Part shown: positions 21,245 to 36,106 of the stretch, piece by piece
How positions within the stretch are numbered: the first letter of the stretch is position 1
Layout of the letters: each line of letters begins with the position of its first letter
Source: an uncultured Acidobacteriota bacterium
GTDB lineage: Bacteria > Acidobacteriota > Thermoanaerobaculia > Multivoradales > UBA5704
Direction: 5' to 3'
Assembly: GCA_963700145.1 (NCBI GenBank)
Contig: OY969474.1
Span: forward strand, 3,360,001-3,424,000
Length of the DNA: 64,000 nt
Translations under genes and position numbers: made by a program
Notes under the pieces: generated by a model
The model's database searches: none
What the model was told of the DNA's origin: nothing
The model's input: only the letters and a program-made list of their open reading frames with translations

Positions 21245-23563
21245 TTACGGCTTTGCCGCCTGACGTTTCGCCGCCGCCGTCGCCCGCGGTGAACGGAGCG
21301 TCAGCTCGCCACCCGGGGCGAGATAGCCTTCAGCACAGGCCGACTCCTTCGGGGCCGCCGCGCCCCACAAGACGAGGAGGGCTTCCTGCGGCTCCAGCTC
21401 GCAGTAGCGGTAGGAGCCGGATGGCATCGCGGTCACGGTCGCGAGGTCGCCCGAGGCCGAGCCGCCGTTGCCGGCGAGAGCCCAGGACCTGAGCAAAGCA
21501 CCGCCCACAGGCTCTCCATCGAGCAGGACCAAAGGGAAGAGAGGGGTGACGAAATTGGAATCGGTGCGAGGGAGGTGCAGCGCTCCCTGGGTCTCCCCCA
21601 GCCGCAAGGTGACAGCCCTCGTCTCCTCGCCCAAGCGGACTCGCCACACCGCGAAGGGGTAACCCGGCGCCATGACGACGAGCCGAGCTCCGGACGTCTT
21701 CTGTGGCAGCTTCAGCTCGAAAGCCCCATCGAGGTCCGCCGCGGTTTGATCCGAGCCCGGCAGCGTGGGCGACCCGGCCGCCGGAAAGGCGTCCGCGAAC
21801 ACCTGCGCCCCGGCGACCGCCGCTCCGCCGGCCGACGTGACCCGCCCGCGCAGCACTCTCCGCGCTTCGACCACGAGATGCAGCGGCGGCGTCTCCGCCC
21901 CTTCGACGACGAGCACCTCGGCGGTGTCCGAGACTTCTCCGGCGACCGTCCTCGCTCGGGCCCAGACGAAACAGCGGCCGGGGAGCTGGCCCTGAATGGC
22001 AAAGCTGCCATCCCGCGCGGTCGTGCGGACAGCGCTACTGAGGCCAGGCTCGAACCGGGCGAGGTGGACCCAAGCGCCTGACACCGGCCTTCCGTCGCCG
22101 TCAACCACCGTGCCGCGAATGGCGGTGTCGGGAATCTCGATCTCGACGTCGCGGCGGCGTCGCACTTCCACCTCGAGCCCGGCGGCGTTGACCGGCGGAT
22201 CGTCGGCTTCGACGTCGACCGTCCAGGTTCCGCCTCGCGGGAGAACGGTCGAGAACTGCCCCTCCGTGTCCGACTCGGCCTCGATCTTCATGCCGCCGCG
22301 GCCGCGTTTGCCGCCGAAGAAGAGACGGCTTGCCAGCGGCTCCTCTCCGAAACGCACCGTGCCCACGACCTCGACCAGGGGCAGCTCGATGACGAGCTTC
22401 TGGGAGGTTTCGGCGAGGGTCACCTCGCGCCAGAAGAACTCGTTGCCGCCCGTGTCGAGCACCTGAACGACGTAGGTGCCGGTGGACAGAGGCGGTGAGC
22501 GCCAGCGGCCGGAACGGTCCGTGGCGCCCTCCGCCGCGTTGATGACGGAACCCTCCTCGGCTGCAAGCAGCAGCAGACGCCAGGGTTTTCGGTGCGGGTC
22601 ACGGGGAGGGTCTACAGACACCACGAAATGGCGTGCGGGGCGGAGCACGAGCGCCTCTCCGATCTCGAGGTCCTCGTCCTCGCGGACCGCGAGGGGCGTG
22701 ACCCGCACGGGCTGGAAATCCGGCTGCCGCGCCTCGAGCGTGTAGCTACCGGCGGGAATGCCGGCGAAGTTGAAGTAGCCCCAGGCATTGACCTGGGACG
22801 AAAAAACGAGCTGCCGGAGCTGAGGACCGTGCGCGCCGTCGGTCCCTCCGTAGACGACAGGCCGCAGCTCCACCTCGGCGTGCGCGGGATCCGCTGGCCC
22901 GGCATCGGTCGCGACGCGGCCGAGCACCGATGCGCCCTTCCGCAGATGGAGACCGCCGAGCGCCTTCGCCTGGCGCGGTTCGAGAGTGAGGTTCCAGAAG
23001 TAGAAGGGCGCGAATCCCTCCGCCTTCGCCCGCAGATCCCACCGGCCCGCCGGCGTCAGGCACTCGATCTCGCCCTTCTCGGTCGCGGGGCAGGCGATCT
23101 CGGCCTCCGCTGGCTGAGCGCCGGACGCTGCCGGTGGGATCGACGCCGAACGCTCCACGAGCCGCAGGCGCAGCTCCTTCGGCATCGTCGCCCCGGAGGG
23201 AGGCCGCACTTGCGCCGTGACCTCGGCAGCCGGCCAAAGCGTGAGTCGCACCGCCGCCTGCTCCTGGGCGGAGAGCTCGACCGGGGCGCTCCAGAGGCCT
23301 TCGGCCGAAGCCTCCAGCCGCCAGCGGGTCTCGTCAGGAAGATCGACCAACGTTTCGAACTTGCCCGCGGGCAGGATGATGGTCATGGCCGCGCGATCGG
23401 CCCCCGCGCTTCCCAGAGGCGAAGCCGTGAGGACGATCGACGAGGGCACAGCGCCCCGAACCGCGACCGAGACCGCGGTCGAAGCCGCCGCACCCTCGGC
23501 GGGCAGCAGGAGCCCTGCAGCCACGGCGGCCGCGTTCAGCACGCGGTGAAGCGAAGCAGCCAT
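21245..23563 (-). CDS. Secreted protein with repeated carboxypeptidase-regulatory-like (transthyretin-fold) domains
   Basis: N-terminal signal-like segment; recurring G.V.D..G.PV.GA.V and G.F.F..(L/I)P.G.Y.L motifs. Confidence 0.75.
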   Translation of the reverse strand: MAASLHRVLNAAAVAAGLLLPAEGAAASTAVSVAVRGAVPSSIVLTASPLGSAGADRAAMTIILPAGKFETLVDLPDETRWRLEASAEGLWSAPVELSAQEQAAVRLTLWPAAEVTAQVRPPSGATMPKELRLRLVERSASIPPAASGAQPAEAEIACPATEKGEIECLTPAGRWDLRAKAEGFAPFYFWNLTLEPRQAKALGGLHLRKGASVLGRVATDAGPADPAHAEVELRPVVYGGTDGAHGPQLRQLVFSSQVNAWGYFNFAGIPAGSYTLEARQPDFQPVRVTPLAVREDEDLEIGEALVLRPARHFVVSVDPPRDPHRKPWRLLLLAAEEGSVINAAEGATDRSGRWRSPPLSTGTYVVQVLDTGGNEFFWREVTLAETSQKLVIELPLVEVVGTVRFGEEPLASRLFFGGKRGRGGMKIEAESDTEGQFSTVLPRGGTWTVDVEADDPPVNAAGLEVEVRRRRDVEIEIPDTAIRGTVVDGDGRPVSGAWVHLARFEPGLSSAVRTTARDGSFAIQGQLPGRCFVWARARTVAGEVSDTAEVLVVEGAETPPLHLVVEARRVLRGRVTSAGGAAVAGAQVFADAFPAAGSPTLPGSDQTAADLDGAFELKLPQKTSGARLVVMAPGYPFAVWRVRLGEETRAVTLRLGETQGALHLPRTDSNFVTPLFPLVLLDGEPVGGALLRSWALAGNGGSASGDLATVTAMPSGSYRYCELEPQEALLVLWGAAAPKESACAEGYLAPGGELTLRSPRATAAAKRQAAKP

Positions 23564-23591: not shown

Positions 23592-23966
23592 TCAGGCTGC
23601 CGGGCGGGCGGGCCCTGAGCACATGGCGGGCGCCGAAGAAAGAGAATCGAAGCGCACCAGGTCAGCCAGCTCGAATCCCAGCCCGGGCTGGCCGGCCGCG
23701 AGAACGATGTTGGCGCCGGGAGCCATCATTCCGTTTTCATCGATGCAGCTCCCCGGGAGCTCGACGCATGAGAATCCCGTGCAGCCCCAGCCCGACAAAC
23801 GGCAGTAGCCGTTGGTGTCGTTGCAGAAGTTGTATCCCGTCACACCCGGGTTGACGTCATAGCAGCCGATGGTGGCGCTGCAAGTCCTGCAGTACGCCAT
23901 GGCGGGTGAGGCTGCCACACCAACGAGAGCCAAAACGAGGAACACCCGGAAACTGAACAGTTTCAT
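23592..23966 (-). CDS. Small secreted Cys-rich protein
   Basis: AAGGAG RBS; signal peptide MKLFSFRVFLVLALVGVAASPAMA; 8 Cys in the next ~50 aa. Confidence 0.75.
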   Translation of the reverse strand: MKLFSFRVFLVLALVGVAASPAMAYCRTCSATIGCYDVNPGVTGYNFCNDTNGYCRLSGWGCTGFSCVELPGSCIDENGMMAPGANIVLAAGQPGLGFELADLVRFDSLSSAPAMCSGPARPAA

Positions 23967-24219
23967 CACGCGTTCTCCTTTCGCTTCGCTGAGATTAATT
24001 CCCTGCAACGTTCTCTCTTAGTTGCTAAGGTGTCCAGGCTAACTCAAGGTGGGACAAAAAGACAAGAAACTGCGGTAAGCAGCACCGCAAGATCTTTCAG
24101 CGGGACAGCGCTATGGCCACGCCGGGCCCGGCACGGTCTTGCGACCGTGTGGCACTATCGGAATGCGGGCGTCCCGCGCCGCTCCGGTCCGGGGTCCGAC
24201 CCGCCGGAGGATGAATCCC

Positions 24220-24585: not shown

Positions 24586-25908
24586 GTGGACAACGAGCGC
24601 GAGCACTCGATCTCCCCCGACGTGCTGGCTCGCTTCGCAGCCGGCGAGGCGACCCCCGAGGAGCACCGCCTCGTCGGTCGTCACCTTCTCGCCGGCTGCG
24701 GCACTTGCACGCAGGCGCTCTCCCTTGTCGCCTTCCCCGAGGAACTAGGCCCGCCGGCCGGCGCCTACGATCAAGCTTTCGCGGTCGTCGACCGGGATGT
24801 GGCCGCGGAGCTGAAGCGCCGCCACCCTCCCGTGCAGAAGCTGCTCGCCGAGCTCGACCGGCTGCCCGCCGAGCGGCAGGAGCTGAAGGTCCGCAACGGC
24901 GCGCGCTATGCCTCGCTGGAGCTGTCCGCGGCCTACGTCGAGCGGAGCCACGAAGTCCGCTACCGGGACTCGGGCGAGATGCTCCGTTTCGCCCGCTTGG
25001 CGCTCGCCGCGGCGGAGGCGGCGGCCTGCGCCGGCCCCGGGCCGCGCTCGCTAGTCAACGACGGATTGGCTCGCGCCTGGGCCCAGGCGGGGACCGCGCA
25101 TCGCGTTCGCAGCGAGGTCGCGCAGGCGGCGGCTGCATTCGAGAGGGCCGATGCGTTTCGGAGGAGCGGTAGCGGCGACACCGCGCTGCACGCCGTGTTG
25201 GCTAGCCAGACCGCCTCTTTCCGTAGTTTTCAGCGTGAGTTCGGGCCGGCAATTCATCTCTATAGGGTTGCAGCGCACCTCTACAGAAAACTGCGCGACC
25301 GTAGAGGCGAGGTCAATGCGCTCATCGGGTTCGCGCTCGTCAAGGTCGCTTCGGGGCAGCCGCAGGATGCCATTGCCCCCCTCCAGCGGTGTTTACCGAT
25401 GCTCACCGGCCGCCCGCACGATCTCGATCTCCTTTGGGCCGCGACGCAGAATCTCGTCTACTGCTTCGTCGAGCTTCAGCAACCCGCCCACGCCTACGAT
25501 CTCCTTGCCCTCTCCGAGCCGCAGTTCGCGGAGTGCACCGACGAGCTGGTCCACCTGCGCGTCGGCTGGGTGAAGGGGAAGGTGGAGCGCGAGCTCGGCC
25601 TTTACGGCGCGGCGCAGTTCCGGCTCGAGCAGGTGCGCGACACCTACATGCGGAAGGACCTGACGGTCGAGGTCGCCGTCGTTTCGCTCGACCTGGCGGA
25701 GGTCTACGCGCGCCAGGGGCTCGTCGCGCAGTTGGTCGGCACCGTGGCCGAGACGATCCCCCTCTTCCAGTCGCTCGGCGTCGGGCGCGAGCTGATCGCC
25801 GCGCTTTTGAAGCTCCAGGAGATCGCCCGCTCCCAGCGGGCCGCCGTCGCGCTGCTGCGCGACGTGGCGAAGAAGTTCCAGGAAAGCCTGCCGCAGCTCA
25901 GCCGTTAG
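24586..25908 (+). CDS. TPR-repeat protein with N-terminal zf-HC2-like (anti-sigma-type) HxxxxCxxC motif (copy A)
   Basis: HLLAGCGTC; helical repeats such as LARAWAQAGTAHRV..A..AFERA. Paralog at 37779. Confidence 0.8.
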   Translation: MDNEREHSISPDVLARFAAGEATPEEHRLVGRHLLAGCGTCTQALSLVAFPEELGPPAGAYDQAFAVVDRDVAAELKRRHPPVQKLLAELDRLPAERQELKVRNGARYASLELSAAYVERSHEVRYRDSGEMLRFARLALAAAEAAACAGPGPRSLVNDGLARAWAQAGTAHRVRSEVAQAAAAFERADAFRRSGSGDTALHAVLASQTASFRSFQREFGPAIHLYRVAAHLYRKLRDRRGEVNALIGFALVKVASGQPQDAIAPLQRCLPMLTGRPHDLDLLWAATQNLVYCFVELQQPAHAYDLLALSEPQFAECTDELVHLRVGWVKGKVERELGLYGAAQFRLEQVRDTYMRKDLTVEVAVVSLDLAEVYARQGLVAQLVGTVAETIPLFQSLGVGRELIAALLKLQEIARSQRAAVALLRDVAKKFQESLPQLSR

Positions 25909-26335
25909 GCCAGGGCGGCACTTCGGGCATCTCGCGGTCGAGCTCCGCGAAGAGGCGCTCGATCTCCTCGTCGCTGAAGATCCCCTTCTCTTTGAGTCTC
26001 CAGATCAGCACGCGGAGGCTCGCGTGCCGCACGAGGCGCGCGCTGAGCGGGTACGCGGGGTGGGGCGGCGCGGCCGCGGGCTTGCCGCGCACGTCGGGGG
26101 GGCCGTAGACCTCCTCGAAGAACTCCACTGGGGAGACGTCGAGCGCGGCGAGGATGCCGGCGATGTGCACGTAGCGCAGCTCGATCGCGCCGCTGAACAC
26201 CTGGCGGAGGTAGTCGTGCCGCCGGCCGATGAGGATCCCGACTTCGCGGAGCGACATGCGCTTGCGGCGGATGATCTCCCGCAAAGCCGTTCGCACCCGA
26301 ATCATTTCGGCGTCGGCCTGTTGGCTGAGATCCAC
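25898..26335 (-). CDS. XRE/Cro-like HTH protein (copy A), probably leaderless
   Basis: LREIIRRKRMSLREVGILIG...YLRQVFSGAIELRYVHI..IL.ALDVSP.EFF. Paralog at 39045. Confidence 0.8.
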   Translation of the reverse strand: MDLSQQADAEMIRVRTALREIIRRKRMSLREVGILIGRRHDYLRQVFSGAIELRYVHIAGILAALDVSPVEFFEEVYGPPDVRGKPAAAPPHPAYPLSARLVRHASLRVLIWRLKEKGIFSDEEIERLFAELDREMPEVPPWPNG

Positions 26336-26341
26336 GCCGGG

Positions 26342-26422
26342 ATTCTACCTCTAGTGTTGCGTTAGTCAACAACAGTAAGGCTAGGCGGCACGTTGACATG
26401 CAGTCGCTAGCTGTGCTGTCAT
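26342..26422. promoter_or_regulatory. Divergent sigma70-type promoters
   Basis: Minus strand TTGACT(26369)-N16-TAGAAT(26342), 6 nt before the HTH GTG. Plus strand TTGACA(26393)-N18-TGTCAT. Confidence 0.55.
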
Positions 26423-26455
26423 CCACTTCGTGCCGAGCCTTTACACCTCTCCGGA

Positions 26456-27238
26456 GTGGCATCTACGCTGTTGGCCCACCTGAGCCACTTCGATGCGCTC
26501 TTCCTGCTCGCGCCCCTGCCGCGGGCCGAGCGGCGGCAGCTCGCGCACGCTCTCGTCTGCGACGCCTGCCGCGCGGTCCTGCGCGAAGTCCTCGCGGCGC
26601 AGACGCCCGCCGCTTCGCCTGAGACTCCCGCCTCCCGCCGCGCCCGCCCTCTCGACTACAGCGCCATGTGGACCGCTCTCGAGAAGAAGCTCGCGGCCGA
26701 GGTGCCGGAGATTTTCCGCGAGCGCGAAGCCGCCCAGCGCGAACTCGACAAGCTGCTGCGCCTGCGGCGAGACCAGCGCGCCGCCGTCGCGCGCCCCTCG
26801 GCCTCCCTCGCCATCCTCCTCCTCGACAAGAGCGCTGAGGTCACCGCCGCGGACCCGCGCGAAGGCGAGCACCTGGCGCGCCTGGTCATCACGATGGTGG
26901 GGAAGCTCGACGTCGCGCACGTGCCGATCACCCTCATCGCCGAGCTGACCAGCCAAGCCTGGGCGCTCGTCGGCAACGCGCGGCGCCACCGGCGCGATCT
27001 GACGGGCGCCGACTGGGCGTTCCAGCAAGCCCAGGCCCGCCTCGACCTGGCAACCGACCTTGCCGTCAACGCCACCTTCTGCCGGCTGCTCGCCGAGCTG
27101 CGCCGCGAGCAAGGCCGCACCGAAGAGGCCCTCGCCCTGGGCGAACGGGCGCGCGTCCTCTTCACCCAAGTCCACAAGCTCGCCGATTCGACTTCGGGCC
27201 CGGGCATTCCGCCCGGTCCCGGTTCACAGGAGACGTGA
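26456..27238 (+). CDS. Short Zn-finger/TPR-like protein (start uncertain)
   Basis: HALVCDAC; LTSQAWALVGNARR..DL..A..AFQQA repeat, matching the long TPR paralogs. Confidence 0.7.
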   Translation: MASTLLAHLSHFDALFLLAPLPRAERRQLAHALVCDACRAVLREVLAAQTPAASPETPASRRARPLDYSAMWTALEKKLAAEVPEIFREREAAQRELDKLLRLRRDQRAAVARPSASLAILLLDKSAEVTAADPREGEHLARLVITMVGKLDVAHVPITLIAELTSQAWALVGNARRHRRDLTGADWAFQQAQARLDLATDLAVNATFCRLLAELRREQGRTEEALALGERARVLFTQVHKLADSTSGPGIPPGPGSQET

Positions 27239-27239
27239 C

Positions 27240-27461
27240 ATGGCCAAGCCCCAGAAATCGCCCCCGACCCCCGTCACCGAGCAGCTCAAAGCCGAGCGCA
27301 TCCAGGAGCTCCACGAGCTCCTGGCGAGCCGTCCCGACCTGCTCCTGAGGGGCCTCCAGGTTCCGTTCGGCCCGCTGACCCTCTACCTCACCCCCGCCGA
27401 CGGCAAGACCCTCACCAAGGAGGACCTGGAGTTCGCGGCGGTCCTCCAGAAGGCGGCCTGA
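27240..27461 (+). CDS. Small protein resembling the C-terminal part of a pterin-4a-carbinolamine dehydratase (PCD)-like fold
   Basis: AGGAG RBS; LTLYLTP..G.TLTKEDLEFA aligns with LTLRLTT..G.VTRADVELA of 35698..36105. Confidence 0.55.
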   Translation: MAKPQKSPPTPVTEQLKAERIQELHELLASRPDLLLRGLQVPFGPLTLYLTPADGKTLTKEDLEFAAVLQKAA

Positions 27462-27505
27462 CGCCGGTGCTGGGGGCTCGACGCCCTCTGCGGAGGACGA
27501 AAAGC

Positions 27506-27736
27506 CGGTATCGGGGCTTGCTCCCTCGGTATCGAGCCCTGATACCTCCGGATCAGGCGCTGCGACCTAGGTATCAGACGCTGCGACCTAGGGAGCGGGC
27601 GCTGCGACCTAGGTATCGGGCGCTCCTACCTCCGGATCAGGCGCCGCTACCCCTGGATGGGGCCCTGCTACCCAGGTATCACGGGCCGATACCCCCGTAT
27701 GGAGCGCTGATACCTCCGTATCGGCGCTTCCTACCC
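27506..27736. repeat. Tandem array A: 11 x 21-bp degenerate palindromic units (GGTATC-N7-GATACC-like core)
   Basis: Units read directly, e.g. CGGTATCGAGCCCTGATACCT, AGGTATCAGACGCTGCGACCT, CCGTATGGAGCGCTGATACCT; no indels. Confidence 0.9.
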
Positions 27737-27762
27737 ACCAACAACTCAAGGAGAGAACCGTC

Positions 27763-28188
27763 ATGCCCGACGCATCGCTAGGAGAGAAGCTCAAGAACTG
27801 GAGGCTGCTGTCCGAGGGCCTGAAGCTCCGCATCGAAGAGGTCCCCTTCCTCAAGGAGGACCACACCGAGCTGAGCGCCCTGGTCGAGCAGATCGATTCC
27901 CTCATGCAGCAGACCGACGTGCACGAGGGCCGGCTCCGCGAGGCGATCCGCCAGAGGGGGATCGCCGAGGACCGGACCGCCGAGCTGTACGGCCGCATGG
28001 TGGCCCGCCTCAAAGGCACCTACGGCAAGAGGTCCAACCTGCTCCACGAGATCGGCCTGCGGCCCGAGGCCCCGCCCGTGCGGTTGTCGAAGAAGGACGA
28101 GCCCGAGCCGCCGGCCCCCGGCACCACACCCACCCAACCCCCCGCTTCGGCCCCGGCGTCGGCTGAGGAGGAGCCGACCGCCGGCTGA
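27763..28188 (+). CDS. Helical coiled-coil protein with Pro-rich tail (copy A)
   Basis: AAGGAG RBS; YGKRSNLLHEIGLRP motif. Paralog 34947..35345 has FGGKSQTLREFLVKP. Confidence 0.8.
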   Translation: MPDASLGEKLKNWRLLSEGLKLRIEEVPFLKEDHTELSALVEQIDSLMQQTDVHEGRLREAIRQRGIAEDRTAELYGRMVARLKGTYGKRSNLLHEIGLRPEAPPVRLSKKDEPEPPAPGTTPTQPPASAPASAEEEPTAG

Positions 28189-28202
28189 CCGAGCGGGCCC
28201 AG

Positions 28203-28249
28203 CACAACGGCCGCCGGCGGAGATCTGACCTCCGCCGGCGGCGCACCGC
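28203..28249 (+). repeat. 47-bp hairpin element (REP-like or terminator-like), identical inverted copy at 34895-34941
   Basis: CACAACG-GCCGCCGGCGGAG-ATCTGAC-CTCCGCCGGCGGC-GCACCGC; 13-bp stem, no U-tract. Confidence 0.9.
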
Positions 28250-28290
28250 TCTCTCACAACACGGCGCGTCGAACGAATGGAGGTTCTCGA

Positions 28291-28704
28291 ATGCCCGCCC
28301 CGAAGCGACCCACCCCGCAAGGCCCCGCCGAGCCGCCCGTCGGCGCCGGCGAGGCGTTCCGCGAGACCTTCGCGGCCCTCTTCCCCTACACCCCGCTGCA
28401 GCACAGTTTGGGCAGTCTCTTGGCGAGCTTGGCCGAGTTCGCCGCGACCCTGCCGGCCTTGGAGCCGCCCGGCGAAGTGACGCAGATGGAGACCGCGCTG
28501 CGCGCCGCCGCCGCCGACCTCCGGTACCTCGAGCGCTTCCTCTCGGGGCTCGGCCGCAAGGCCTCCGACCGGAAGCTCCTCCAGACCGACCGCCAGCTCG
28601 CCCGCGGCGCGGGACGGCTGGTCATTCGGGTAGGCGCCGCCGCCCAGGCGATCGACGAGATGGTCGACGCGGCGCAGGCGGCCCGCCGCGCGGAGGCCGG
28701 GTGA
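28291..28704 (+). CDS. Hypothetical helical protein
   Basis: GGAGG RBS, ATG start, high-GC3 codon usage. Confidence 0.6.
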   Translation: MPAPKRPTPQGPAEPPVGAGEAFRETFAALFPYTPLQHSLGSLLASLAEFAATLPALEPPGEVTQMETALRAAAADLRYLERFLSGLGRKASDRKLLQTDRQLARGAGRLVIRVGAAAQAIDEMVDAAQAARRAEAG

Positions 28705-28961: not shown

Positions 28962-29706
28962 ATGGAACGCACGATCAACTCCGCCCTCCGCCTCCATCAC
29001 ATGCTCCTCGCCCTGCGCGACGCGAGCCGCGAGGGGCGCCCCATCCGCCAAGTCCTCGCCGAGGTCTTCGAGCTCCAGCCGGACGACGACCTCGCCCTCC
29101 GCCGCCGGCTGCTGGCGGTCGACGACCTCTTCGCCGAGTCCGAGGCCGCGATCCGGTCGATTCCGGGCATCGACCTGCAGCGCTACCTCCGCTACTTCCC
29201 CGCGGCCAGGAAGGCCCTCCTCGGCGCCCGCCTCGACCAGGACTCCCGCCGCTACGCCCCGTTCCAGGAGGCCCTCGGCGAGGCCGTCTGCCAGTCCATC
29301 GAGTTCTGCGGCGCCCGCATCGCCGAGGAGTTCCCCGAGACCCGTCCTGGCAACCGACGACCTGGGCGAGGTCGAGGCCCGGCTCAACGCCCTCTTCGCC
29401 TTCACCGCCAGCGCCGAGCTCGACCCCGCGCTCCGCCAGGTCAGCCTCGACATCCTGCAGGCCCTCCGCGCCGCCCTTGCCGACTACCGCATCCACGGCG
29501 CCGCCGGGCTCCAGGAGGCCGTCGAGCAGGCGGTGGGCAAGCTCACCGTCCACTACCTCCGCGCGAGAAAGCAGGGCACCCGTCTCGACATCGACCAGCT
29601 CGAACGGCTCCTCGACCTGATCTTCAAGTTCGAGGCCCTGCTCGCCAAGGCGTCCGTCTACCTGCCGGCGCTGACCGAGTACCTGCCGAAGCTCCTGGGG
29701 GCGTAA
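28962..29706 (+). pseudogene. Hypothetical helical protein split by a +1 frameshift near 29340 (or a sequencing error)
   Basis: GGAGG RBS; MERTINSALR...EEFPE continues in the next frame as PVLATDDLGEVEARL...DYRIHGAAGLQEAVE...LLGA*. Confidence 0.7.
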
Positions 29707-29710
29707 GGCG

Positions 29711-30325
29711 ATGGCGGACCTGCGCTGGCTGACACGCATTGGCGACTACGAAGTCATCCGCCGCGAGATCCCACGCCTGGGCGGCAAGCCGTACTACTTG
29801 AACGGCAGCACCCTGATCGGCGTCCTCCACACGACCGAAGGCGACACCGTCGAGGCGGCGTGGCGCACCCTCCGCCAGCAGAATGCGGCGCCTCACTTCA
29901 TCGCCGGCGAGAACACGATCGTCCAGTGCCGGCCCCTCAATGCGCAGGCCTCGACGCTGCGCCCCCGCCGGAACAACACCGCGAACGTCCACGCGCAGGT
30001 GCAGGTCGAGATGGTGGCGCGGAGCAAGCAGAAGCTGTGGCTTCCGAAGCCGTCCACGCTCGACCCGACGGTCGCGATCCTGGCCTTCTGCGAGAAGGCC
30101 CTCGGGATTCCGCTACGAGTCCCGAACGACTGGCCGGACGACTGCGCGGACCTGCCGTTGCCGTGGGCCGCGAACGACAGGCGACGGAGGCAGGCCAGCA
30201 AGGGGTTGTGGCCGAAGGAGCTCCTCGAGGATCTCCTCGGAACCCGGGTCGATCTCGTCACCGAGCGCGGCCTCAGGGCGCGAGTCCGGCCGAGTGTCGA
30301 AAGGGACGCAATTCGTGTCGCGTAA
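29711..30325 (+). pseudogene. Chimeric ORF: amidase_2-like N-terminus fused to the C-terminal tail of a minimal nucleotidyltransferase (MNT)
   Basis: VLHTTEG..APHF....IVQ..PL is amidase-like; the ending LLEDLLGTRVDLVTERGLRARVRPSVERDAIRV is typical of MNT antitoxins. Confidence 0.55.
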
Positions 30326-30597
30326 ACCAGACTGGACGCCAACGCCACTACACATCACCTCGCGCGAAGACCAACAGCAGCAATCTCGTTACCGGCCACC
30401 CTCAGTCCTCCTCCTATTCGCCCTCCGCGCCGCAGACAACATCGTCGAGTGCCCCTATCAAGGTCACACCTCAGCCGGCAACAACACGTTATAGCCGACG
30501 CTCAGATGGAGAAGATCGACGCGAGCGAAACCACACTCCGCAACTCCAGGCCTGCCAGGAGTGAAGGGCTGGTTACCTCCGGCTACGGCCTAAGCTC

Positions 30598-30634
30598 TTG
30601 ACACCCTCCGCCCGCGGCACGTATGCTCTATAAT
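30598..30634 (+). promoter_or_regulatory. Sigma70-type promoter upstream of the HD-CE gene
   Basis: TTGACA-N18-TATGCT with an adjacent TATAAT. Confidence 0.55.
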
Positions 30635-31035
30635 AGTGCCCGACGGTTCCTCAGCTCGCGGCGGTGAATTTGTCTTAAAGGCTCATCCTTGGTAACGATT
30701 TGGTAGGAAGCTCGGCGGCCTGCTGCTAAATGCCTCCCCCGACCACCTTCAACGTGCTATTTCGCTGACAGCTCTAATGCCAGTAATTCCTCCAGCGCCT
30801 CACGATGTCAACAGCTCGCACGTGCTCCAAGTTCTTCGGCGAAAGAGCACGGAACATGACGGCTTGAGCGTTAAAGTCCAACAATTCATTTCCGTCGCCA
30901 CACCGATGGTTGACTTAGTGGCCGCTGGTCCATTCCGAAATTATACTCTCCATAATCGAGACCATGCCCGCAAGATCATTCATCTCATTCAATACCTCGT
31001 TCCACCTGCCACGCTTGACCAACTTTCAAGCCTAG

Positions 31036-32533
31036 CAGCCCGTGGTGAAAGTCGCTGAGCGCGGTTGAGCCTGTCCGAGCAGGTCGGTAGGCTTCGAGCC
31101 AATTCGACGAGGGTCAAGCCAATGGCGATGGGCAAGCGCGAGCGGCAGCTGCAGCAGAGGCTCTGGGTGGAGTCGCAGCGGCTGGCGAAAGGGCCGAGCC
31201 ACCCCTTCTACAGTCGGTTGAATCAGATCCTGGGCAAGCACGGGTTCGACGACTTCGCCGAGGCGGCGTGCAAGCCGTTCTATGCCGAGCGCATGGGCCG
31301 CCCGTCGCTGGCGCCTGGGGTGTACTTCCGGCTGCTGCTGATCGGCTACTTCGAGGGGATCGACTCGGAGCGGGGCATCGCCTGGCGGGTGGCGGATTCG
31401 ATCGGCTTGCGCGACTTTTTGGGCTTGACGCTGACCGACACGACGCCGGACCACTCGACGATCTCGCGCACTCGGCGGTTGATCGAGCTGGGGACGCACC
31501 AGGAGGTGTTCGCCTGGGTGCTTGCGCTGCTGGCCAAGGAGAAGCTCGTCCGGGGCGAGACGCTGGGGATCGATGCGACGACGCTCGAGGCCAACGCGGC
31601 GCTGCGCAGCATCGTGCGGCGCGACAGCGGCGAGAGCTACCAGGAGTTTCTGACCCGGCTGGCTCAGGCCTCGGGCATTGCGACGCCAACGCGGGAGGAC
31701 TTGGCGCGGCTGGACCGTGACCGACCGCGGAAGGGCTCGAACAAGGAATGGAAGCACCCGCACGATCCGGATGCGCGGATCACCAAGATGAAGGACGGGC
31801 GGACGCATCTGGCCCACAAGGCCGAGCACGCGGTGGATCTGGAGACCGGCGCGATCGTGGCGGTGACCGTGCAGCCGGCCGATCGCGGGGACACGGCCAG
31901 CATCGAGGAGACCGTCCAGGAGGCGATGGATGTCCTGGCCGATGTCCTGGAAGACGAGGAAGCGGCCGAGCAGCTCGACGGCGAAGTGCTCAGCGAGATC
32001 GTCGGCGACAAGGGCTACCACAGCAACGCCGTACTCACCGGGTACGAGGCCCTGGGCATTCGCACCTACATCTCCGAGCCCAAGCGCGGCCGGCGCAACT
32101 GGCGCGGCAAGACGGCGGCGCAGCACGCCACCCACGCCAATCGGCGCCGCGTGCGCGGCGCGCACGGCAAGGCCCTGCTGCGGCGACGCGGCGAGGTCCT
32201 CGAACGCAGCTTTGCCCATTGTTACGAAACCGGCGCCTTGCGCCGAGCTCATCTCCGAGGACGGCAGAACCTCGCGAAACGAGTGCTGGTCCATGCGGCG
32301 GGCTTCAATCTCGGCCTGGTGATGCGCCGGCGCCTTGGGCGCGGCACGCCACGGGGGCTGCAGGGCGCCATGGGGCGGGCTTCCGCCGCTCTTTGTGACC
32401 TCCTGGGCACCCTCGGGCGTGCCCTCCTCGACCTCCGGTTTCAATGGAGCCCGCACATCGTGATCGGTTGGCTCCACGTACCCCGTACGGTCGCGGCCTG
32501 AACCAGGACCGAGGGCACTTCCACCACGGGCTG
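31036..32533 (+). mobile_element. Insertion sequence (IS1182/IS5-like), 1498 bp
   Basis: 17-bp terminal inverted repeats CAGCCCGTGGTGAAAGT / CAGCCCGTGGTGGAAGT (1 mismatch); CTAG target duplication at 31032-31035 and 32534-32537. Confidence 0.93.
31122..32501 (+). CDS. DDE transposase
   Basis: GRPS, PDHSTISR, IDATTLEANA, DPDAR, DKGY and ERSFA motifs. Confidence 0.93.
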   Translation: MAMGKRERQLQQRLWVESQRLAKGPSHPFYSRLNQILGKHGFDDFAEAACKPFYAERMGRPSLAPGVYFRLLLIGYFEGIDSERGIAWRVADSIGLRDFLGLTLTDTTPDHSTISRTRRLIELGTHQEVFAWVLALLAKEKLVRGETLGIDATTLEANAALRSIVRRDSGESYQEFLTRLAQASGIATPTREDLARLDRDRPRKGSNKEWKHPHDPDARITKMKDGRTHLAHKAEHAVDLETGAIVAVTVQPADRGDTASIEETVQEAMDVLADVLEDEEAAEQLDGEVLSEIVGDKGYHSNAVLTGYEALGIRTYISEPKRGRRNWRGKTAAQHATHANRRRVRGAHGKALLRRRGEVLERSFAHCYETGALRRAHLRGRQNLAKRVLVHAAGFNLGLVMRRRLGRGTPRGLQGAMGRASAALCDLLGTLGRALLDLRFQWSPHIVIGWLHVPRTVAA

Positions 32534-34894
32534 CTAGAGTGCCTGCTTCTCGTATATGCGGCCTTTCTCCACGACATGGGAATGGTCGTAACAGCTACTG
32601 AGCGCAATCGGATCCTGTCCTCTCCTGAGTTCCAGGACAGCATACAAGACTGGCCGGCGCTGGCTACGGCTTATTCTCAGGTGCGTGATCAGCTGAGCAA
32701 AGCCAAGGATGCGGATCGTCTTGTCCTTGAGCTCTTCTTATATCAACTCCAGGAGGCAGCGCTGGTCGCATACTTGCGCCCGCTCCATGCGAGTGTGCAG
32801 CGCTATAATGAGCTGTGCAGCCAACTTCGCCTCAACTCAAACTACCCGGACCTCTTTAGCTTTCGCGGAGTATCATTCGAAAGTTGGTTGGTCGACATCT
32901 GCGCAAGCCACAACCTCGACGCCTCAGTCCTCAGCGAATCTGCGGACGCCTACAACGATCGCTTTCCACGAGACTTGACAATCGCGCACGAGAAGGCAAA
33001 TGTGCAGTTTTGCGCTGCCCTGCTCCGGTTGGCTGACATCTTGGATTTTGACCGAGAACGCACTCCACGGATTCTCTTTGAGAGCCTCGGGATCGCTGAG
33101 AGTGGCTTGCCTGGAGCTGAGGTATCGCTTCAGGAATGGGAAAGACACCTGGCTGTTCACACGCTTGAACTCCGTGAGGACGAACTGCTGGTCAGCGCCG
33201 AGTGCCGTCACCCCGCGATCGAAAAGTCTATTCGCGACTTTTGTTCGCTCATTGAGCGTGAACTTCGCGACACGTTGGCTGTACTAAAGCGAAACCCGCC
33301 CGAGATCCTCAGTCGCTATTCCTTCGAACTTCCGGTGAGTGTCCGTCCACGAATTACCTCCGTGGGGTACTCGTACAAGGACTTAGCTCTACGGCTGAAC
33401 CAGTCTGCTGTCATGTCGCTGTTGATGGGAGACCGACTCTATACACATGCAGGCGTCGCGCTGCGTGAGCTCCTTCAGAACGCTCTGGACGCGTGCGACG
33501 TTCGGCGGCGGCTTCACCATGAGACCAACTACACGCCGTCGATTCAAGTCTTAACAACTGTCGATCGCCTCGGGAGGCTGTGGATCGAGGTAGCAGACAA
33601 TGGTATCGGAATGGACGAGCATGTGTTGAGCGACTATTTTTTGAAGATCGGTGACACGTACTACGATTCTCCCGAGTTCAAACGACAATTCGCGAGGCTA
33701 CAGACGGTCGCGTTGCCATTCCAACCGATATCGCGCTTTGGTATTGGAATCGTGTCTGTCTTTATGCTCGCGGATGTTCTGGAGGTTCAGACGAGTAGTG
33801 CATTTTCGCCGCGCCAGGACACGCGAGGCCGACTCGTTAGAATCGAACGACTTGGTGGCTTAGCCTTTGTGACCGAACAGATGAGGCCAGAGTATGGCAC
33901 CACTATCCGCATTCGACTTCGAAGCGACATTGCCTCTGGATTAGACAGATTTTTCAACGAAGCAACGAACTACCTTCGATGGCTTGTACTACGACCTGCA
34001 TTTCTAATTCAGCTCCAGCTGGGAATAGGAACGCCAATCTTTTATCTCCCGGGAACGGATGGTCTATTCTTTACGGTATCGCGCAAAGGGGTAGAGTTAT
34101 ATGGCCGACGAGGCTATGAGGTGGTCACTATTGAGCTGGAGCGATGGAGCGATCGATTATCGGGCATCGTTATTCTTGTTTTCGCAAAGGATGGGGAAGG
34201 GCGATTGACGACCAAGGAGGGCTCTCGGCGAATCGCTTTTGATCCAAAGGATCCACAGCAGCTGAATCCGTTGACACTTGTTCCTGGATTTCGCGGTAAT
34301 CGGCTTACGGTGAGCGGTTTTCGAGTCAAGACGTTTCGCACGCGCAATTCTTCTCGTTTATGGCCGCAGCCGACGATCGGGTACGCGCTTTGCCTTTCTG
34401 ATTGACGCTGAGGCCGTGGGCAGTAAGGAAGTAGAATTCGATGTCTCGAGGGAGCGACTGACACACAGGGGAGAAGCTTACCTTCGAAGCGAGATCCAAA
34501 CGACCGTTTTGGCTTCCCTCATCGATCTTGGAGTTATGGACCGTTCGACACCGAGGCAAGGCTTTCCCTTTCCCCGACACGGAAGGAAATAGAGGAAGTG
34601 CGGGCCCGCCTTTCGACTTCTGACCGGAGACCGGATGCTCTCCAGGAACTCTTCGCCGCTGTCCTAAGGGCCCTTCCTTCGGGCCCATGGCCAAAGGGCC
34701 TGCATCACCAGATCGCGAGTGAATTGGGCATAAGCAGGAACCTCGTCTCAAAGGTGATTTCCAACTTGCTTGCATCAGGTCTTGCAGTAAAGGCCGAGTC
34801 TGCAGAGACGGATCAGTCGCCAATACTGAACGAAGAATAAGAAGGACGCTGTGCAAACGCGAAGGGGCAGATGACGCGCCGCGTTGCGATAAGG

Positions 34895-34941
34895 GCGGTG
34901 CGCCGCCGGCGGAGGTCAGATCTCCGCCGGCGGCCGTTGTG
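34895..34941 (-). repeat. 47-bp hairpin element, exact reverse complement of 28203-28249
   Basis: GCGGTGCGCCGCCGGCGGAGGTCAGATCTCCGCCGGCGGCCGTTGTG. Confidence 0.9.
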
Positions 34942-34946
34942 TCAGG

Positions 34947-35345
34947 TCAGGAGGTGGGCGGCGAGGTCGCCGGCGGCGGCGTGGTGGGCGCCGGGGGCGT
35001 GGTCGGCTCCTCCTTCTTACTCGGGCGGCGGCCGCCGCGGGGCTTGACGAGGAACTCGCGGAGGGTCTGGCTCTTGCCGCCGAACCAGCCGCGCAAGGCG
35101 TCGCGGATCTGGGTGCGCAGCTCGAGGCCGCGGGTTTCCTGCCTGCGCCGGCTGTCGTTGGTCTCCCGCAGGCGCGCGTTGTAGACCTCTTGCTGGGCTT
35201 CCAGCGAGCGGCAGGCGAGGAGCCAGGCTTCGAGGTCGGCCTGGAGGGGTTGGATGTGGGCCGGCAGGTCGGCCAGCTTGGCTTTGAGGTTGACGTTGAG
35301 GGTGTCCATCTCGGTCAGCAGCTCGAGAAACGACTCTCTGGCCAT
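34947..35345 (-). CDS. Helical coiled-coil protein with Pro-rich tail (copy B)
   Basis: AAGGAG RBS before MARESFLELL; similar to 27763..28188 (RLRE, SKK.E, PPAP.T.P). Confidence 0.8.
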   Translation of the reverse strand: MARESFLELLTEMDTLNVNLKAKLADLPAHIQPLQADLEAWLLACRSLEAQQEVYNARLRETNDSRRRQETRGLELRTQIRDALRGWFGGKSQTLREFLVKPRGGRRPSKKEEPTTPPAPTTPPPATSPPTS

Positions 35346-35427: not shown

Positions 35428-35626
35428 GGGTCAAGCGTACTTTCGCCCGGTACGCCCGTACTGTCCCTCGGTACAAGCGTACTTTCGGCCGGTACATGCG
35501 TACCGGTCGACGGTACAAGCGTACTTTCGGGTAGTACATGTGTACTGGCCGGCGGTACAAGCGTACTTTCGGGTAGTACATGCGTACCGGGCTCCGGTAC
35601 GTGCGTACTGTTCAAAAGTACGCTTG
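35428..35626. repeat. Tandem array B: ~9.5 x 21-bp units with palindromic RGTAC-N4-GTACY core
   Basis: Units GGTACAAGCGTACTTTCGGCC, GGTACATGCGTACCGGTCGAC, AGTACATGTGTACTGGCCGGC etc.; 18 GTAC sites; no indels. Confidence 0.92.
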
Positions 35627-35697: not shown

Positions 35698-36105
35698 TCA
35701 GGTTCGGTCGTTCCAGATACCGGTTGCCGCCAGCATGGCGGCGAGCCGGGTGTCGAGATCGGCGAGGGACATGGGGCCGCGGGTGAGGGCTTGGGCGAGC
35801 TCGACGTCGGCGCGGGTGACGGCGCCGACCGCCGGGGTGGTGAGCCGCAGGGTGAGACGCAGGCCGGAGAGCTCGACGCGCAGGTCGCGGCGGTGGGACT
35901 CGGCCGTGAAGACGACGAGCATCGCGGCGAAGACGGCGCTGGGGGCGGTGCCGAGGGTGTAGCGGCCGACGAGCTCGCGGTTGCCGCCTTCGGCCTCCCA
36001 CCCGGGCAGCATGCGCAGGCGCCGTGCGAGCTGCCGCGGGCTGAGCGGCTCGTCCGCCCGCTGGCGCGCCCGCGCGGTCTTTTTCCGTGGGCTGGTCTTC
36101 GTCAT
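35698..36105 (-). CDS. Pterin-4a-carbinolamine dehydratase-like protein (degenerate; no HHP motif)
   Basis: GGAGG RBS; L..LPGW....RELV..Y, then LTLRLTT..G.VT..DVELA. Confidence 0.6.
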   Translation of the reverse strand: MTKTSPRKKTARARQRADEPLSPRQLARRLRMLPGWEAEGGNRELVGRYTLGTAPSAVFAAMLVVFTAESHRRDLRVELSGLRLTLRLTTPAVGAVTRADVELAQALTRGPMSLADLDTRLAAMLAATGIWNDRT

Positions 36106-36106
36106 C

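Follow-up and report, generated by a model that had tools for sequence, protein, structure and literature searches.

Array A, a run of 11 units of 21 bp directly upstream of the gene for a coiled-coil (CC) protein, is non-coding DNA and belongs to a class of dispersed arrays that comprises many families and extends over the whole genome. We consider the chances evenly balanced that it serves, in one module with the CC gene, as a docking track of double-stranded DNA with helical phasing. The array lies in a stretch of 64,000 nucleotides from an uncultured Acidobacteriota bacterium (the window; positions refer to it unless a genome position is given). In its anatomy, array A is a row of 11 dyad-symmetric sites, one per two helical turns, that fills the spacer between the S73 and CC141 genes and provides the cis half of a two-part module of phased array and CC-family gene. 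Modules of array and CC gene occur 16 times in the genome and recur throughout one family of Thermoanaerobaculia. The features discussed here are the following.

24586–25908, plus strand: TPR440, a cassette protein resembling TPR proteins (weak similarity to TPR_12 and the NsdA family)
25898–26335, minus strand: HTH145, an XRE-type helix-turn-helix protein, divergently transcribed (weak match to Pfam HTH_31, E 0.024)
26456–27238, plus strand: P260, a cassette protein akin to the TPR protein family (paralogue comparison)
27240–27461, plus strand: S73, the gene for a 73-aa protein directly upstream of array A (blastp, tblastn)
27467–27781, plus strand: RYRALxP ORF, 104 aa with a GTG start, spurious (GC3, codon score, divergence pattern)
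27475–27505, plus strand: conserved 5′ flank of array A, a CCTC-TGCG-GAGG inverted repeat followed by GAAAAGC
27506–27736, no strand: array A, 11 units of 21 bp with a degenerate GGTATC-N7-GATACC dyad (indel-free register)
27737–27762, plus strand: 26-nt spacer between array A and CC141 with an AAGGAG ribosome-binding site (read from the sequence)
27763–28188, plus strand: CC141, a 141-aa coiled-coil protein, partner gene of array A (GC3 0.93)
28291–28704, 28962–29732 and 29711–30325, plus strand: P137, P256 and P204, downstream cassette genes (paralogue order)
34947–35345, minus strand: a 132-aa CC paralogue with array B upstream (31% identical to CC141 at E 5e-08; jackhmmer)
35432–35620, no strand: array B, 9 units of 21 bp with a 42-bp super-period and a GTAC-N4-GTAC core (TRF, register layout)

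The initial annotation had described an exact 21-bp periodicity free of indels, a degenerate GGTATC-N7-GATACC dyad, an absence of unique spacers and a gap of 26 nt to the ATG at 27763, and all four points were borne out. The consensus of the 11 units in the 21-bp register is CGGTATCGGGCGCTGCTACCT. Columns G3, A5, C19 and C20 are invariant (11/11), and T6 and A18 are kept in 10/11 units. A repeat search returned 9 overlapping 84-nt copies, always spaced by 21, and TRF gave periods of 21 and 42 with 0% indels. The autocorrelation is 0.70 at lag 21 vs 0.19–0.29 at the other lags between 15 and 27, and the maximum reached in 2000 shuffles (lags 10–59) was 0.41. The dyad is perfect in 2 of the 11 units and has at most 3 mismatches in 8, all in exact register; with 31 of 44 cells paired it is more degenerate than in the orphan copies. 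The whole window holds 16 dyad matches vs 9.4 expected, a number attained by none of 100 shuffles. The units abut head to tail, unlike CRISPR, which is defined by repeats with unique spacers of like length. Downstream of the array end at 27736 follow the AAGGAG ribosome-binding site at 27748–27753 and the CC141 start codon.

The unit number of array A is stable: metagenome contigs from soil span all of it with 0 gaps and 3, 4 or 26 letter differences. The 5′ flank is matched to a depth of 21–31 bp at three of four dispersed copies of the array (genome 4669674, 2192264 and 685012) and to only 8 bp at the fourth (genome 1034134). On the other side, the block CAACTCAAGGAG within the 26-nt spacer is common to paralogous cassettes, and a remnant of it is still present beside the orphan array at genome 2192264, where the ribosome-binding site and a mutated start codon are retained. 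No CC gene remnant beside the orphan arrays was significant (best E 0.051 and 0.22). Some metagenome contigs skip 113 bp within array A; these rest on 25-letter sides and may derive from paralogous arrays.

An ORF runs through the array as previously described, and as 21 bp equal 7 codons and the frame stays open throughout, array A could be part of an ordinary repeat protein, a RYRALxP heptad-repeat peptide of 104 aa. We find this hardly credible and reject the ORF as a protein. Its GC content by codon position is 0.71/0.61/0.63, compared with a GC3 of 0.88–0.95 in five neighbouring genes, and its codon log-odds is −47.1 vs +44 to +127 for the six genes called from 24586 to 28704. The 4317 gene calls used for this scoring, and for orienting the arrays, have a mean GC3 of 0.94. 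The codons TAT, CTA and CCT occur in the ORF at 38–76 per 1000 vs 0.7–2.0 in the training genes, and invariant columns include third codon positions held by T or A. Mean identity among array A copies is 0.75, 0.69 and 0.78 for the three codon positions, with no three-base periodicity. The proposed comparison of dyad-preserving with synonymous substitutions gave better kept cores and no excess of divergence at third positions. An open frame is uninformative in arrays of this kind, since at least one stop-free frame is present in 71/76 of them, and a codon repeat is impossible for the 17 sister arrays with a period of 20 bp. The ORF has no Pfam match and overlaps the start of CC141.

The 5.46-Mb genome contains ∼134 arrays with a period of 20 or 21 bp, belonging to ∼36 sequence families, and 120 of the 134 are intergenic. 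Among 149 merged tandem-repeat loci, 117 have a period of 21 and 17 a period of 20; the array period is constrained to the DNA helix. The array A family comprises four dispersed paralogous copies besides array A, and the family of array B has orphan arrays at genome 1826066 and 2993257. Pairwise identity among the five copies of the array A family is 0.84 in dyad-core columns and 0.65 in other columns, and this core conservation could come partly from homogenisation within arrays instead of selection. An AT-hook or DNA-shape idea, in which the cores would be the AT-rich part, found no support: the AT content is 0.350 in the eight most conserved columns vs 0.357 in the rest, and the expected direction was seen in only 46/100 arrays.

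The gene next to array A belongs to the family that defines the module. Jackhmmer identified 16 CC genes in the genome, all just downstream of an array whose unit sequence differs each time; 14 of the ORFs abut a listed array (gap of at most 105 bp), one a 42-bp array and one a degenerate array. CC, which starts just downstream of 13 arrays compared with at most 3 for any other family, is the sole sizeable gene family in that position. Within the same bacterial family 21 of 24 genomes have it, compared with none of 16 from the other families of the order. The initial annotation would have been contradicted by a lack of such arrays at orthologous loci; in relatives, arrays were found upstream of CC at 17 of 28 fetched loci using TRF and at 17 of 27 using autocorrelation. 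Where orthologous CC proteins are 93–94% identical, the unit consensus is the same (distance 0) and the arrays are nearly identical unit for unit. In a sample of 200–300 kb from each of seven genomes, arrays of at least 7 copies numbered 8 in 900 kb of CC-positive genomes (G010, G006, G016, G023) and 0 in 880 kb of CC-negative genomes (G022, G013, G031).

CC141 is modelled with helices only and no strand: a helix at 6–21, a long helix at 28–87 and a disordered tail. Its predicted homodimer is an antiparallel rod of ∼9 nm, roughly the length of one 21-bp unit. The homodimer score was 0.65 vs 0.01 for the best of 3 controls, by a mark that 20/30 proteins solved as one-chain pairs and 1/23 solved as single chains attained, and across runs at least 91% of contacts agreed with a partner pLDDT of at least 81. 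The modelling supports the formation of a CC141 homodimer. The helical core of CC proteins is near neutral (pI 5.6–8.2 in 14 of the 16 paralogues), and members of the CC141 subfamily have an acidic tail. Searches of CC141 against Pfam, PDB, PHROG, PADLOC and NCBIfam gave no family match, Foldseek against PDB gave none at E ≤0.001, and a sequence profile against PDB matched generic coiled coils only; no recognisable DNA-binding fold or HTH family appeared in these searches. The only matches in a protein atlas were Acidobacteriota clusters without names. At 50% identity the family forms 1156 clusters (E up to 0.001) or 486 (E up to 1e-10), with no Pfam domain among those inspected. A search for related loci found one in metagenomes (L045, 76% identity) and none among genome contigs.

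The cassette around array A is shared in part with paralogous cassettes, between which an 87% homology breaks off at 27465 and restarts at 27738. Judged from these breakpoints, the array is a block swapped between paralogous cassettes, and it is replaced outright at a dS of ∼0.3–0.45. Genes flanking the array (CC and S73) have dN/dS values of 0.26–0.68, with 0.48–0.68 for S73, and P260 and HTH145 have values of 0.05–0.07: the P260 paralogue at genome 3107254–3108018 is 96% identical in amino acids (dN/dS 0.07), and the HTH145 paralogue at genome 3888064–3888501 is 99% identical (dN/dS 0.05). S73-like ORFs form a blastp cluster covering 8 of the 16 CC loci, tblastn located S73 copies at 4 other loci, and S73 weakly resembles (E 0.003) a Pterin_4a-like ORF upstream of array B. 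Three to four other cassettes have paralogues of P137, P256 and P204 in unchanged order. None of these three matched a known family, and PADLOC, PHROGs and NCBIfam returned nothing for S73, P137 and P256.

An alternative at the level of RNA is that the array acts after transcription, as the leader or intercistronic spacer of the CC mRNA, in the form of a row of hairpins or a precursor of unit-length RNAs; it could then stabilise the mRNA or soak up a protein, as CsrB and the TRAP-binding trp leader do. S73 and CC141, which enclose array A, are encoded on the same strand, and the interval that separates them contains no promoter-like site; a sigma-70-like site on the CC strand upstream of the array, which places the array inside a transcript, is present at 4 of the 16 CC loci. 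Such sites were found in 16 of 5000 random windows and in 48 of 3398 gene-upstream regions, the latter being a rough control as the gene calls behind it are often antisense frames (long calls have GC1 0.88 and GC3 0.78). The arrays are probably transcribed, and the sense RNA of array A folds better than shuffles (z = −3.70, 0/100 as good). The antisense strand does so nearly as well, however (z = −2.76), and the dyad mismatches in CC orientation are G·U in 45 cases vs A·C in 43. Compensatory double changes are not in excess (127 observed vs 119.9 expected). A dyad of at least 5 pairs is found in 54 of 100 arrays and ∼45 have none beyond chance length (at most 4 pairs), the loop is 0–2 nt long in 35 of 80 palindromic arrays, and orphan arrays occur in every orientation class. 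Rfam 15 gave no match to the array; one sub-threshold match lay inside the CC gene (20.2 bits vs a gathering score of 40). The earlier idea of a leader processed into unit-length RNAs is therefore unsupported, and we consider an RNA element quite unlikely.

A different explanation needs no dedicated reader: the arrays may be selfish or neutral dispersed repeats, BIME- or MITE-like, self-copied or block-copied, which pile up where harm is small, with the link to CC reflecting hitch-hiking or a preferred insertion site. The five copies of the array A family are homologous unit by unit, which means that whole blocks were copied, and one copy, at genome 4669674 and with 87% identity to array A, sits where synteny with four congeners ends, right behind a conserved gene. 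In 52 master–orphan pairs, homology extends at least 20 bp past the array in just 9 on the 5′ side and 9 on the 3′ side. The non-CC arrays are spread evenly on the chromosome (KS p = 0.51) and are enriched between convergent genes (32 of 107 vs 160 of 966 spacers genome-wide), a setting in which they could hardly act as operators. Transposase ORFs lie beside 7 and 8 arrays of mixed families. Against this, all 16 CC genes are tied to arrays, and the tie persists from genus to genus even though the array sequences turn over completely, a pattern that is difficult to explain without a function. In every copy the cores have diverged less than the spacers, register and unit number are retained between species and strains, the period is fixed at 20 or 21 bp, and a search for Y1 transposases (PF01797) matched nothing in the genome while matching in 6 of 14 control genomes. 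On this evidence we regard a selfish or neutral origin without a reader as unlikely; if it were true, the arrays would still be an unusual repeat class with its period locked to the DNA helix.

We return to the docking track, for which the initial annotation had proposed a polymerisation platform for a local HTH protein. In kind the phased DNA platform stood, given that the array is non-coding, accompanies 16/16 CC genes and is kept in relatives; the HTH protein at 25898 as its sequence-specific reader was weakened. Its 99% identical paralogue adjoins an unrelated array family, though in a cassette with broken genes, and homologues, present at 8 of the 16 CC loci, are also found in genomes without the CC family. 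HTH145 has a sigma-70-like promoter of its own at 26369–26342. Phased in this way, the array would offer a one-sided, cooperative docking track to a symmetric protein. The best candidate reader would be the CC protein itself as the predicted antiparallel dimer, and the second the divergent HTH145. CC pairs of ∼80% identity adjoin unrelated arrays (unit distance 6–10), so either a few substitutions are enough to change CC specificity or the arrays are not read by CC. Across loci, CC identity and array distance track one another, which leaves the reader question undecided as common descent would yield the same.

The docking track would lie downstream of the promoter, between cistrons of a putative P260–S73–CC operon, and its occupancy would thus gate transcription into the CC gene, either as a roadblock or in an autoregulatory loop. 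The four dispersed copies of array A and the ∼100 arrays of other families could be further docking or titration sites on the chromosome. The sequences show directly how the array is built, that it is non-coding, that it goes with CC genes, that it is copied in blocks and that its cores are conserved; that a protein binds it, which protein reads it and what follows for regulation are inferences.

Arrays and CC genes may together form a chromosome-wide, multi-specificity and so far undescribed system with at least 13 cognate pairs of coiled-coil protein and array family, a tentative idea to which we give a modest chance. Each family would consist of one gene-linked “master” array and several block-copied orphans; 51 of 99 orphan arrays match one among 13 CC-linked arrays. 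The system could be a long-term partnership like REPIN-RAYT, without a transposase, or an “address code” in the DNA, with paralogous rod-shaped dimers that tag or link selected intergenic sites. Its range would be limited to one family of soil Acidobacteriota, with more than 1000 protein clusters there. If so, common uncultured soil bacteria would hold dozens of paralogous modules of a protein plus a phased DNA track, neither half of which (CC protein, array) falls in a described family. The modules would provide a natural set of orthogonal protein–DNA pairs tunable by repeat number and, because the array is replaced outright between cassettes, a test case for the co-diversification of cis arrays and readers. 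They would possibly be a second case, following REPIN-RAYT, in which dispersed repeats persist alongside a cognate host gene. Our full-text literature search, whose coverage leaves out most subscription journals, found no description of such arrays.

Among known systems, theta-replicating plasmids such as F, P1, RK2 and pPS10 carry iterons, direct repeats of ∼17–22 bp spaced about two helical turns apart, and extra iteron arrays elsewhere serve as titration sites. Array A, with 11 indel-free units of 21 bp, is a tandem repeat of this type; unlike iteron systems, it has no Rep initiator gene (20 proteins, 21.2–39.0 kb of the window) and no plasmid context. Plasmid centromere or operator arrays beside a gene for a small binding protein include parC–ParR (R1, pSK41), parH–ParG, stbDR–StbA and the omega heptads of pSM19035. 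They resemble array A in being short tandem repeats, helically phased and situated immediately ahead of the gene for a small protein, with array sequences that vary between paralogous systems and an expectation of cooperative multi-site docking. Array A and its cassette differ from partition loci in several respects. The cassette proteins have no match to a ParA, ParM or TubZ NTPase (Pfam, NCBIfam, PHROG), and the prediction for CC141 is helical throughout, without a ribbon-helix-helix. The array is chromosomal and downstream of the promoter.

Array A could in principle be the relic of an iteron or centromere array from an integrated plasmid or mobile element whose replication or partition module would be the cassette. 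Besides the unit size and phasing that recall iteron and parC arrays, the locus lies in a lower-GC region (0.54–0.70 vs ∼0.75) with a transposase, and the cassette is multi-copy and mosaic. We consider this origin very unlikely, as Rep, ParA, ParM and ParB were absent among the same 20 proteins, CC141 has no relative by tblastn in 72,556 plasmid and 50,697 phage records, and 16 modules with ∼134 arrays per chromosome are present across a whole bacterial family.

REP and BIME elements are palindromic intergenic repeats that occur as several families per genome and in head-to-tail clusters, and they are enriched outside promoters. Together with RAYT transposases they form the REPIN-RAYT systems (compare PMC3733652). 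The arrays studied here are similar in the nature and distribution of the repeats and in that each family has one copy set beside a “cognate” protein gene, to whose arrays about half of the orphans can be matched. They differ in that the partner is a small coiled-coil protein instead of a Y1 (RAYT) transposase, the 20- or 21-bp units are in strict helical phase, and whole blocks of 11–12 units are copied.

KfrA of plasmid RA3 is an alpha-helical coiled-coil autoregulator of 355 aa with a mapped N-terminal HTH, which binds to five 9-bp repeats at its own promoter (PMC7783346). This operator overlaps the −35 and −10 boxes, the 9-nt motif is found nowhere else in RA3, and repression depends on repeat number and oligomerisation (PMC7783346). 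Compared with KfrA as described there, CC141 is shorter (141 aa) and has no detectable HTH, while the long helix at 28–87 and the predicted homodimer are present; array A differs from the KfrA operator in its 11 units of 21 bp, its location downstream of promoters and its dispersed copies. The likeness lies in a repetitive site next to the gene of an alpha-helical protein that associates with itself, as predicted for CC141, and a dependence on repeat number and oligomerisation like that of KfrA is what we propose for CC141 and array A.

Array A lies directly 5′ of CC141, one of 16 genes of a coiled-coil (CC) protein family in the genome. The surrounding features of the window are listed below; positions in the whole genome are marked "genome".

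21245-23563: 772-aa protein with CarboxypepD_reg repeats
23592-24008, minus: small cysteine-rich ORF adjoining the 772-aa protein; signal-peptide-like N-terminus, no family match
24586-25908, plus: TPR440
25898-26335, minus: HTH145, XRE-type HTH protein
26456-27238, plus: P260
27240-27461, plus: S73
27467-27781, plus: heptapeptide ORF (RYRALxP); frame present, coding-like composition absent
27506-27736, no strand: array A, 11 head-to-tail units of exactly 21 bp
27763-28188, plus: CC141
28291-28704, plus: P137
28962-29732, plus: P256
29711-30325, plus: P204
31065-32501: IS5/DDE-type transposase
32444-34405: 653-aa protein with HD-CE and HATPase_c domains
34947-35345, minus: CC paralogue of array B (31% identity to CC141, E 5e-08)
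35432-35620: array B, 9 x 21 bp, GTAC-N4-GTAC core, 42-bp super-period
35698-36234, minus: ORF upstream of array B, matching pterin-4a-carbinolamine dehydratase (DCoH) models (Pfam 1e-09, NCBIfam 1.7e-08)

The unit consensus of array A is CGGTATCGGGCGCTGCTACCT. Columns G3, A5, C19 and C20 never vary, while T6 and A18 occur in 10 of the 11 units, which defines a conserved skeleton GGTA...TACC with its dyad axis at column 11. A repeat search found nine 84-nt copies, every spacing being 21, and TRF returned periods of 21 and 42 with 0% indels; the autocorrelation at lag 21 was 0.70, as against at most 0.41 in 2000 shuffles. GGTATC-N7-GATACC is perfect in only two units and within three mismatches in 8/11, all in register. 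AAGGAG is located at 27748-27753, and the ATG at 27763 is 26 nt past the array end. The initial annotation, which had described 11 indel-free 21-bp units, a degenerate dyad and this 26-nt distance, was thus accurate on every point checked.

It had also pointed out that the array can be read as heptapeptides. The frame does exist, but it does not resemble a gene. Its GC content at codon positions 1, 2 and 3 is 0.71, 0.61 and 0.63 (GC3 of five neighbouring genes, 0.88-0.95), and a codon model whose training set was 1065 long ORFs of high GC3 scores it at -47.1, compared to +44 to +127 for the called genes from 24586 to 28704. TAT, CTA and CCT occur at 38-76 per 1000 codons (0.7-2.0 in the training genes), and several of the best-conserved array columns are third codon positions with T or A. 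Among five paralogous array copies mean identity at the three codon positions is 0.75, 0.69 and 0.78; third-position relaxation is therefore absent in this family. As 71 of the 76 arrays of at least 150 bp contain at least one stop-free frame, an open frame is no evidence of coding, and 17 sister arrays have a period of 20 bp, which is impossible for a codon repeat. Composition, codon score, codon-position identity and sister arrays all speak against a repeat protein, which we find barely credible. We conclude that array A is real and non-coding.

Array A is one of many such arrays. TRF analysis of the whole genome, a single 5,455,767-bp contig of which the window covers 3,360,001-3,424,000, showed periods of 21, 42, 63 and 20 in large excess; after merging, 117 loci had a best period of 21 and 17 of 20, with a median length of 192 bp. 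Single-linkage clustering of the unit consensus sequences yielded 36 families; coding repeats probably account for one GC-rich family and a few more. By the corrected gene calls, intergenic arrays number 120 out of 134, and array positions are even along the chromosome (KS p = 0.51). Of 100 arrays, 54 have a consensus dyad of five pairs or more and about 45 are no better than chance, so palindromy is common, not obligatory. Two families of transposase-like ORFs occur at most 1.5 kb from 7 and 8 arrays, respectively (examples at genome 5155015-5156307, 1826612-1827904 and 4825852-4826697). As the array families differ, IS elements seem to prefer or tolerate arrays as places to insert.

When the window proteins were compared to the genome by tblastn, nearly all CC141 paralogues were found to touch an array. 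Of the 16 CC-family ORFs detected by jackhmmer, 14 lie no more than 105 bp from a listed array, one is next to an array with a 42-bp period and one follows a degenerate periodic stretch; the unit sequence differs at each locus. The CC family is also the only sizeable one among ORFs whose start lies up to about 200 bp 3′ of an array (13 arrays vs at most 3 for any other). Since the genes 3′ of CC vary (glycosyltransferase, cupin, VapBC pair, unknowns), the recurring unit is array plus CC gene and no larger operon. The VapB-VapC (PIN) toxin-antitoxin pair directly follows CC at genome 2132209-2132834 (L038 2210-2832). Array B lies 86 bp upstream of its CC paralogue, and the two modules face each other about 6.8 kb apart; 30300-34900, between them, is low in GC (0.54-0.63) and contains the IS5/DDE-type transposase and the 653-aa protein. 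The DCoH-matching ORF upstream of array B weakly resembles S73 (E 0.003), which means that half of the CC modules have a small DCoH-like protein beside them.

Of the 24 genomes of the same taxonomic family that were searched, 21 had CC-family genes (4-20 matches each); none of the 16 genomes drawn from eleven other families in the order did. At CC loci of other genomes, a 20/21-bp array was located 40-325 bp upstream in 17/28 by TRF and upstream in 17/27 by autocorrelation (union, 19); at three further loci the array is downstream instead. Orthologous loci in the sister species (CC 93-94% identical) have arrays with a unit consensus distance of 0 and near-identity unit for unit. Seven genomes were sampled at 200-300 kb each: arrays with 7 or more copies numbered 8 in 900 kb of four CC-positive genomes and 0 in 880 kb of three CC-negative ones, a comparison with few independent contrasts because two CC-negative genomes, though in the same family, share a single genus.

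The order TPR440, HTH145 (divergent), P260, S73, array, CC141, P137, P256, P204 recurs at three to four other places, some copies being broken. Nucleotide homology to the cassette at genome 3.104-3.110 Mb (87%) stops at 27465 and restarts at 27738; the array is thus exactly the non-homologous block. At similar dS across the cassette genes (0.30-0.45), dN/dS is 0.07 for P260, 0.05 for HTH145 (vs a third cassette), 0.26-0.63 for CC, 0.48-0.68 for S73 and 0.39-0.50 for P137. The array-flanking S73 and CC therefore rank fastest at the protein level, and the array itself is exchanged as a whole. Two cassettes with unrelated arrays share HTH145 at 99% identity, which weakens this protein as a specific reader, though the second cassette is partly pseudogenised. 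The earlier suggestion of a platform for a local HTH protein thus loses ground as to the protein, while a phased duplex track is favoured, with confidence evenly balanced. Full-length HTH145 homologues adjoin many CC loci in the genus, and the family is also found in 2/3 CC-negative genomes of the same taxonomic family and 5/16 genomes of other families. In the paralogous cassette at genome 3886743-3892017, P260, P256 and P204 are in several pieces, apparently through frameshifts. It still has a 99% identical HTH145, which marks the cassettes as mosaics formed by recent exchange.

Four further copies of the array A family, at genome 4669674, 2192264, 685012 and 1034134, align unit by unit over 11-12 units. 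In three of them the best pairwise match continues into the 5′ flank for 21-31 bp, in the fourth for 8 bp. At 2192264 the ribosome-binding block is retained too, and the start codon has become ATA. The site at 4669674, where the copy shares 87% identity with array A, is a variable spot: in four congeners homology covers the conserved upstream gene (81-98%), ends at its stop codon and gives way to a different sequence in each. The 87-bp 3′ end of this gene recurs just past the array (94% identical to the relatives' gene end), so that the array region is bracketed by a direct duplication (L050 764-850 and 1264-1350, genome about 4669463-4670049). Across the five copies, identity is 0.84 in dyad-core columns and 0.65 in other columns.

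Among orphan arrays, those away from CC genes, 51/99 match one of 13 CC-linked (master) arrays within 5 of 21 positions. In 52 master-orphan pairs similarity extends at least 20 bp beyond the array in only 9 (5′ side) and 9 (3′ side), and in most families it ends at the array borders. Orphans are enriched between convergent genes (32/107 vs 160/966 spacers), which argues against promoter elements. Copying is thus block-wise and the cores are under constraint. We consider it unlikely that array A is a selfish dispersed repeat. Contigs from four soil metagenomes of separate studies cover array A, and three span it completely or almost so, with no gaps (4, 3 and 26 differing letters). The number of units is stable. 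In the most divergent contig, three adjacent units have T for G at column 17 of the unit, suggesting exchange between neighbouring units.

At four CC loci (C7, C11, C14, C15) a sigma-70-like site (background, 16/5000 random windows) is found on the CC strand 68-179 bp upstream of the array; at least these arrays therefore lie inside a transcribed leader. There is no such site between S73 and CC141, the sole one in 26300-28300 being the HTH145 promoter on the opposite strand, and array A is thus probably intercistronic. In principle the arrays could thus act as RNA, and a structured leader RNA had been put forward initially. However, dyad mismatches in CC-gene orientation are equally G·U (45) and A·C (43), compensatory double changes in 80 arrays are at expectation (127 observed, 119.9 expected), the loop is only 0-2 nt in 35/80 palindromes and the folding of array A beats that of shuffles to a similar degree on either strand (z = -3.70 and -2.76). 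None of these four tests gave an RNA signature and Rfam gave no match, which makes an RNA-level leader rather improbable even with transcription through arrays likely at four loci. As 20 or 21 bp is about two turns of B-DNA, the restriction to these periods fits recognition on one face of duplex DNA.

The AlphaFold model of CC141, built on a 24-sequence alignment, has a helix at 6-21, a long helix at 28-87 (pLDDT mostly >94), a short helix at 92-96 and a disordered Pro/Ala/Thr tail. The two-copy prediction scored 0.65 (0.01 for the best of three controls), above the method's mark, which is reached by 20/30 proteins solved as pairs of one chain and 1/23 solved as single chains; contact agreement between runs was at least 91% and pLDDT at least 81. 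Contacts of residue 40 with residues 68-72 in the partner chain make the predicted dimer antiparallel. The modelling supports homodimer formation, and the 60-residue helix would span about 9 nm, roughly one 21-bp unit. The helical core is close to neutral and members of the CC141 subfamily have an acidic tail; most paralogues have an arginine-rich patch just past the invariant P101. No family or fold match was found in Pfam, PDB, PHROGs, PADLOC, NCBIfam or the protein atlas and no relatives in plasmid and phage records; the CC family comprises 1156 clusters at E up to 0.001.

Taken together, our leading reading, to which we give about an even chance, is that array A is a helically phased duplex-DNA docking track forming a conserved module with the CC gene. 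Candidate readers are the CC protein and, in second place, the XRE-type HTH protein. A full-text search for such arrays found no description of them. By their defining tests, array A falls outside the centromere, iteron and REP-RAYT systems. In its mode of working it can be likened to centromere arrays, from which it differs in lacking an NTPase and a ribbon-helix-helix protein, and to iteron arrays, from which it differs in lacking a Rep (no NTPase or Rep among the 20 proteins scanned at 21.2-39.0 kb); a plasmid-type iteron or centromere relic is highly improbable. It can likewise be compared with KfrA-type repeat operators (PMC7783346); CC141 has a long helix and a predicted homodimer, and gave no match to an HTH family or fold. 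With REP-RAYT elements array A shares the logic of dispersal, and it differs from them in having no Y1 transposase.
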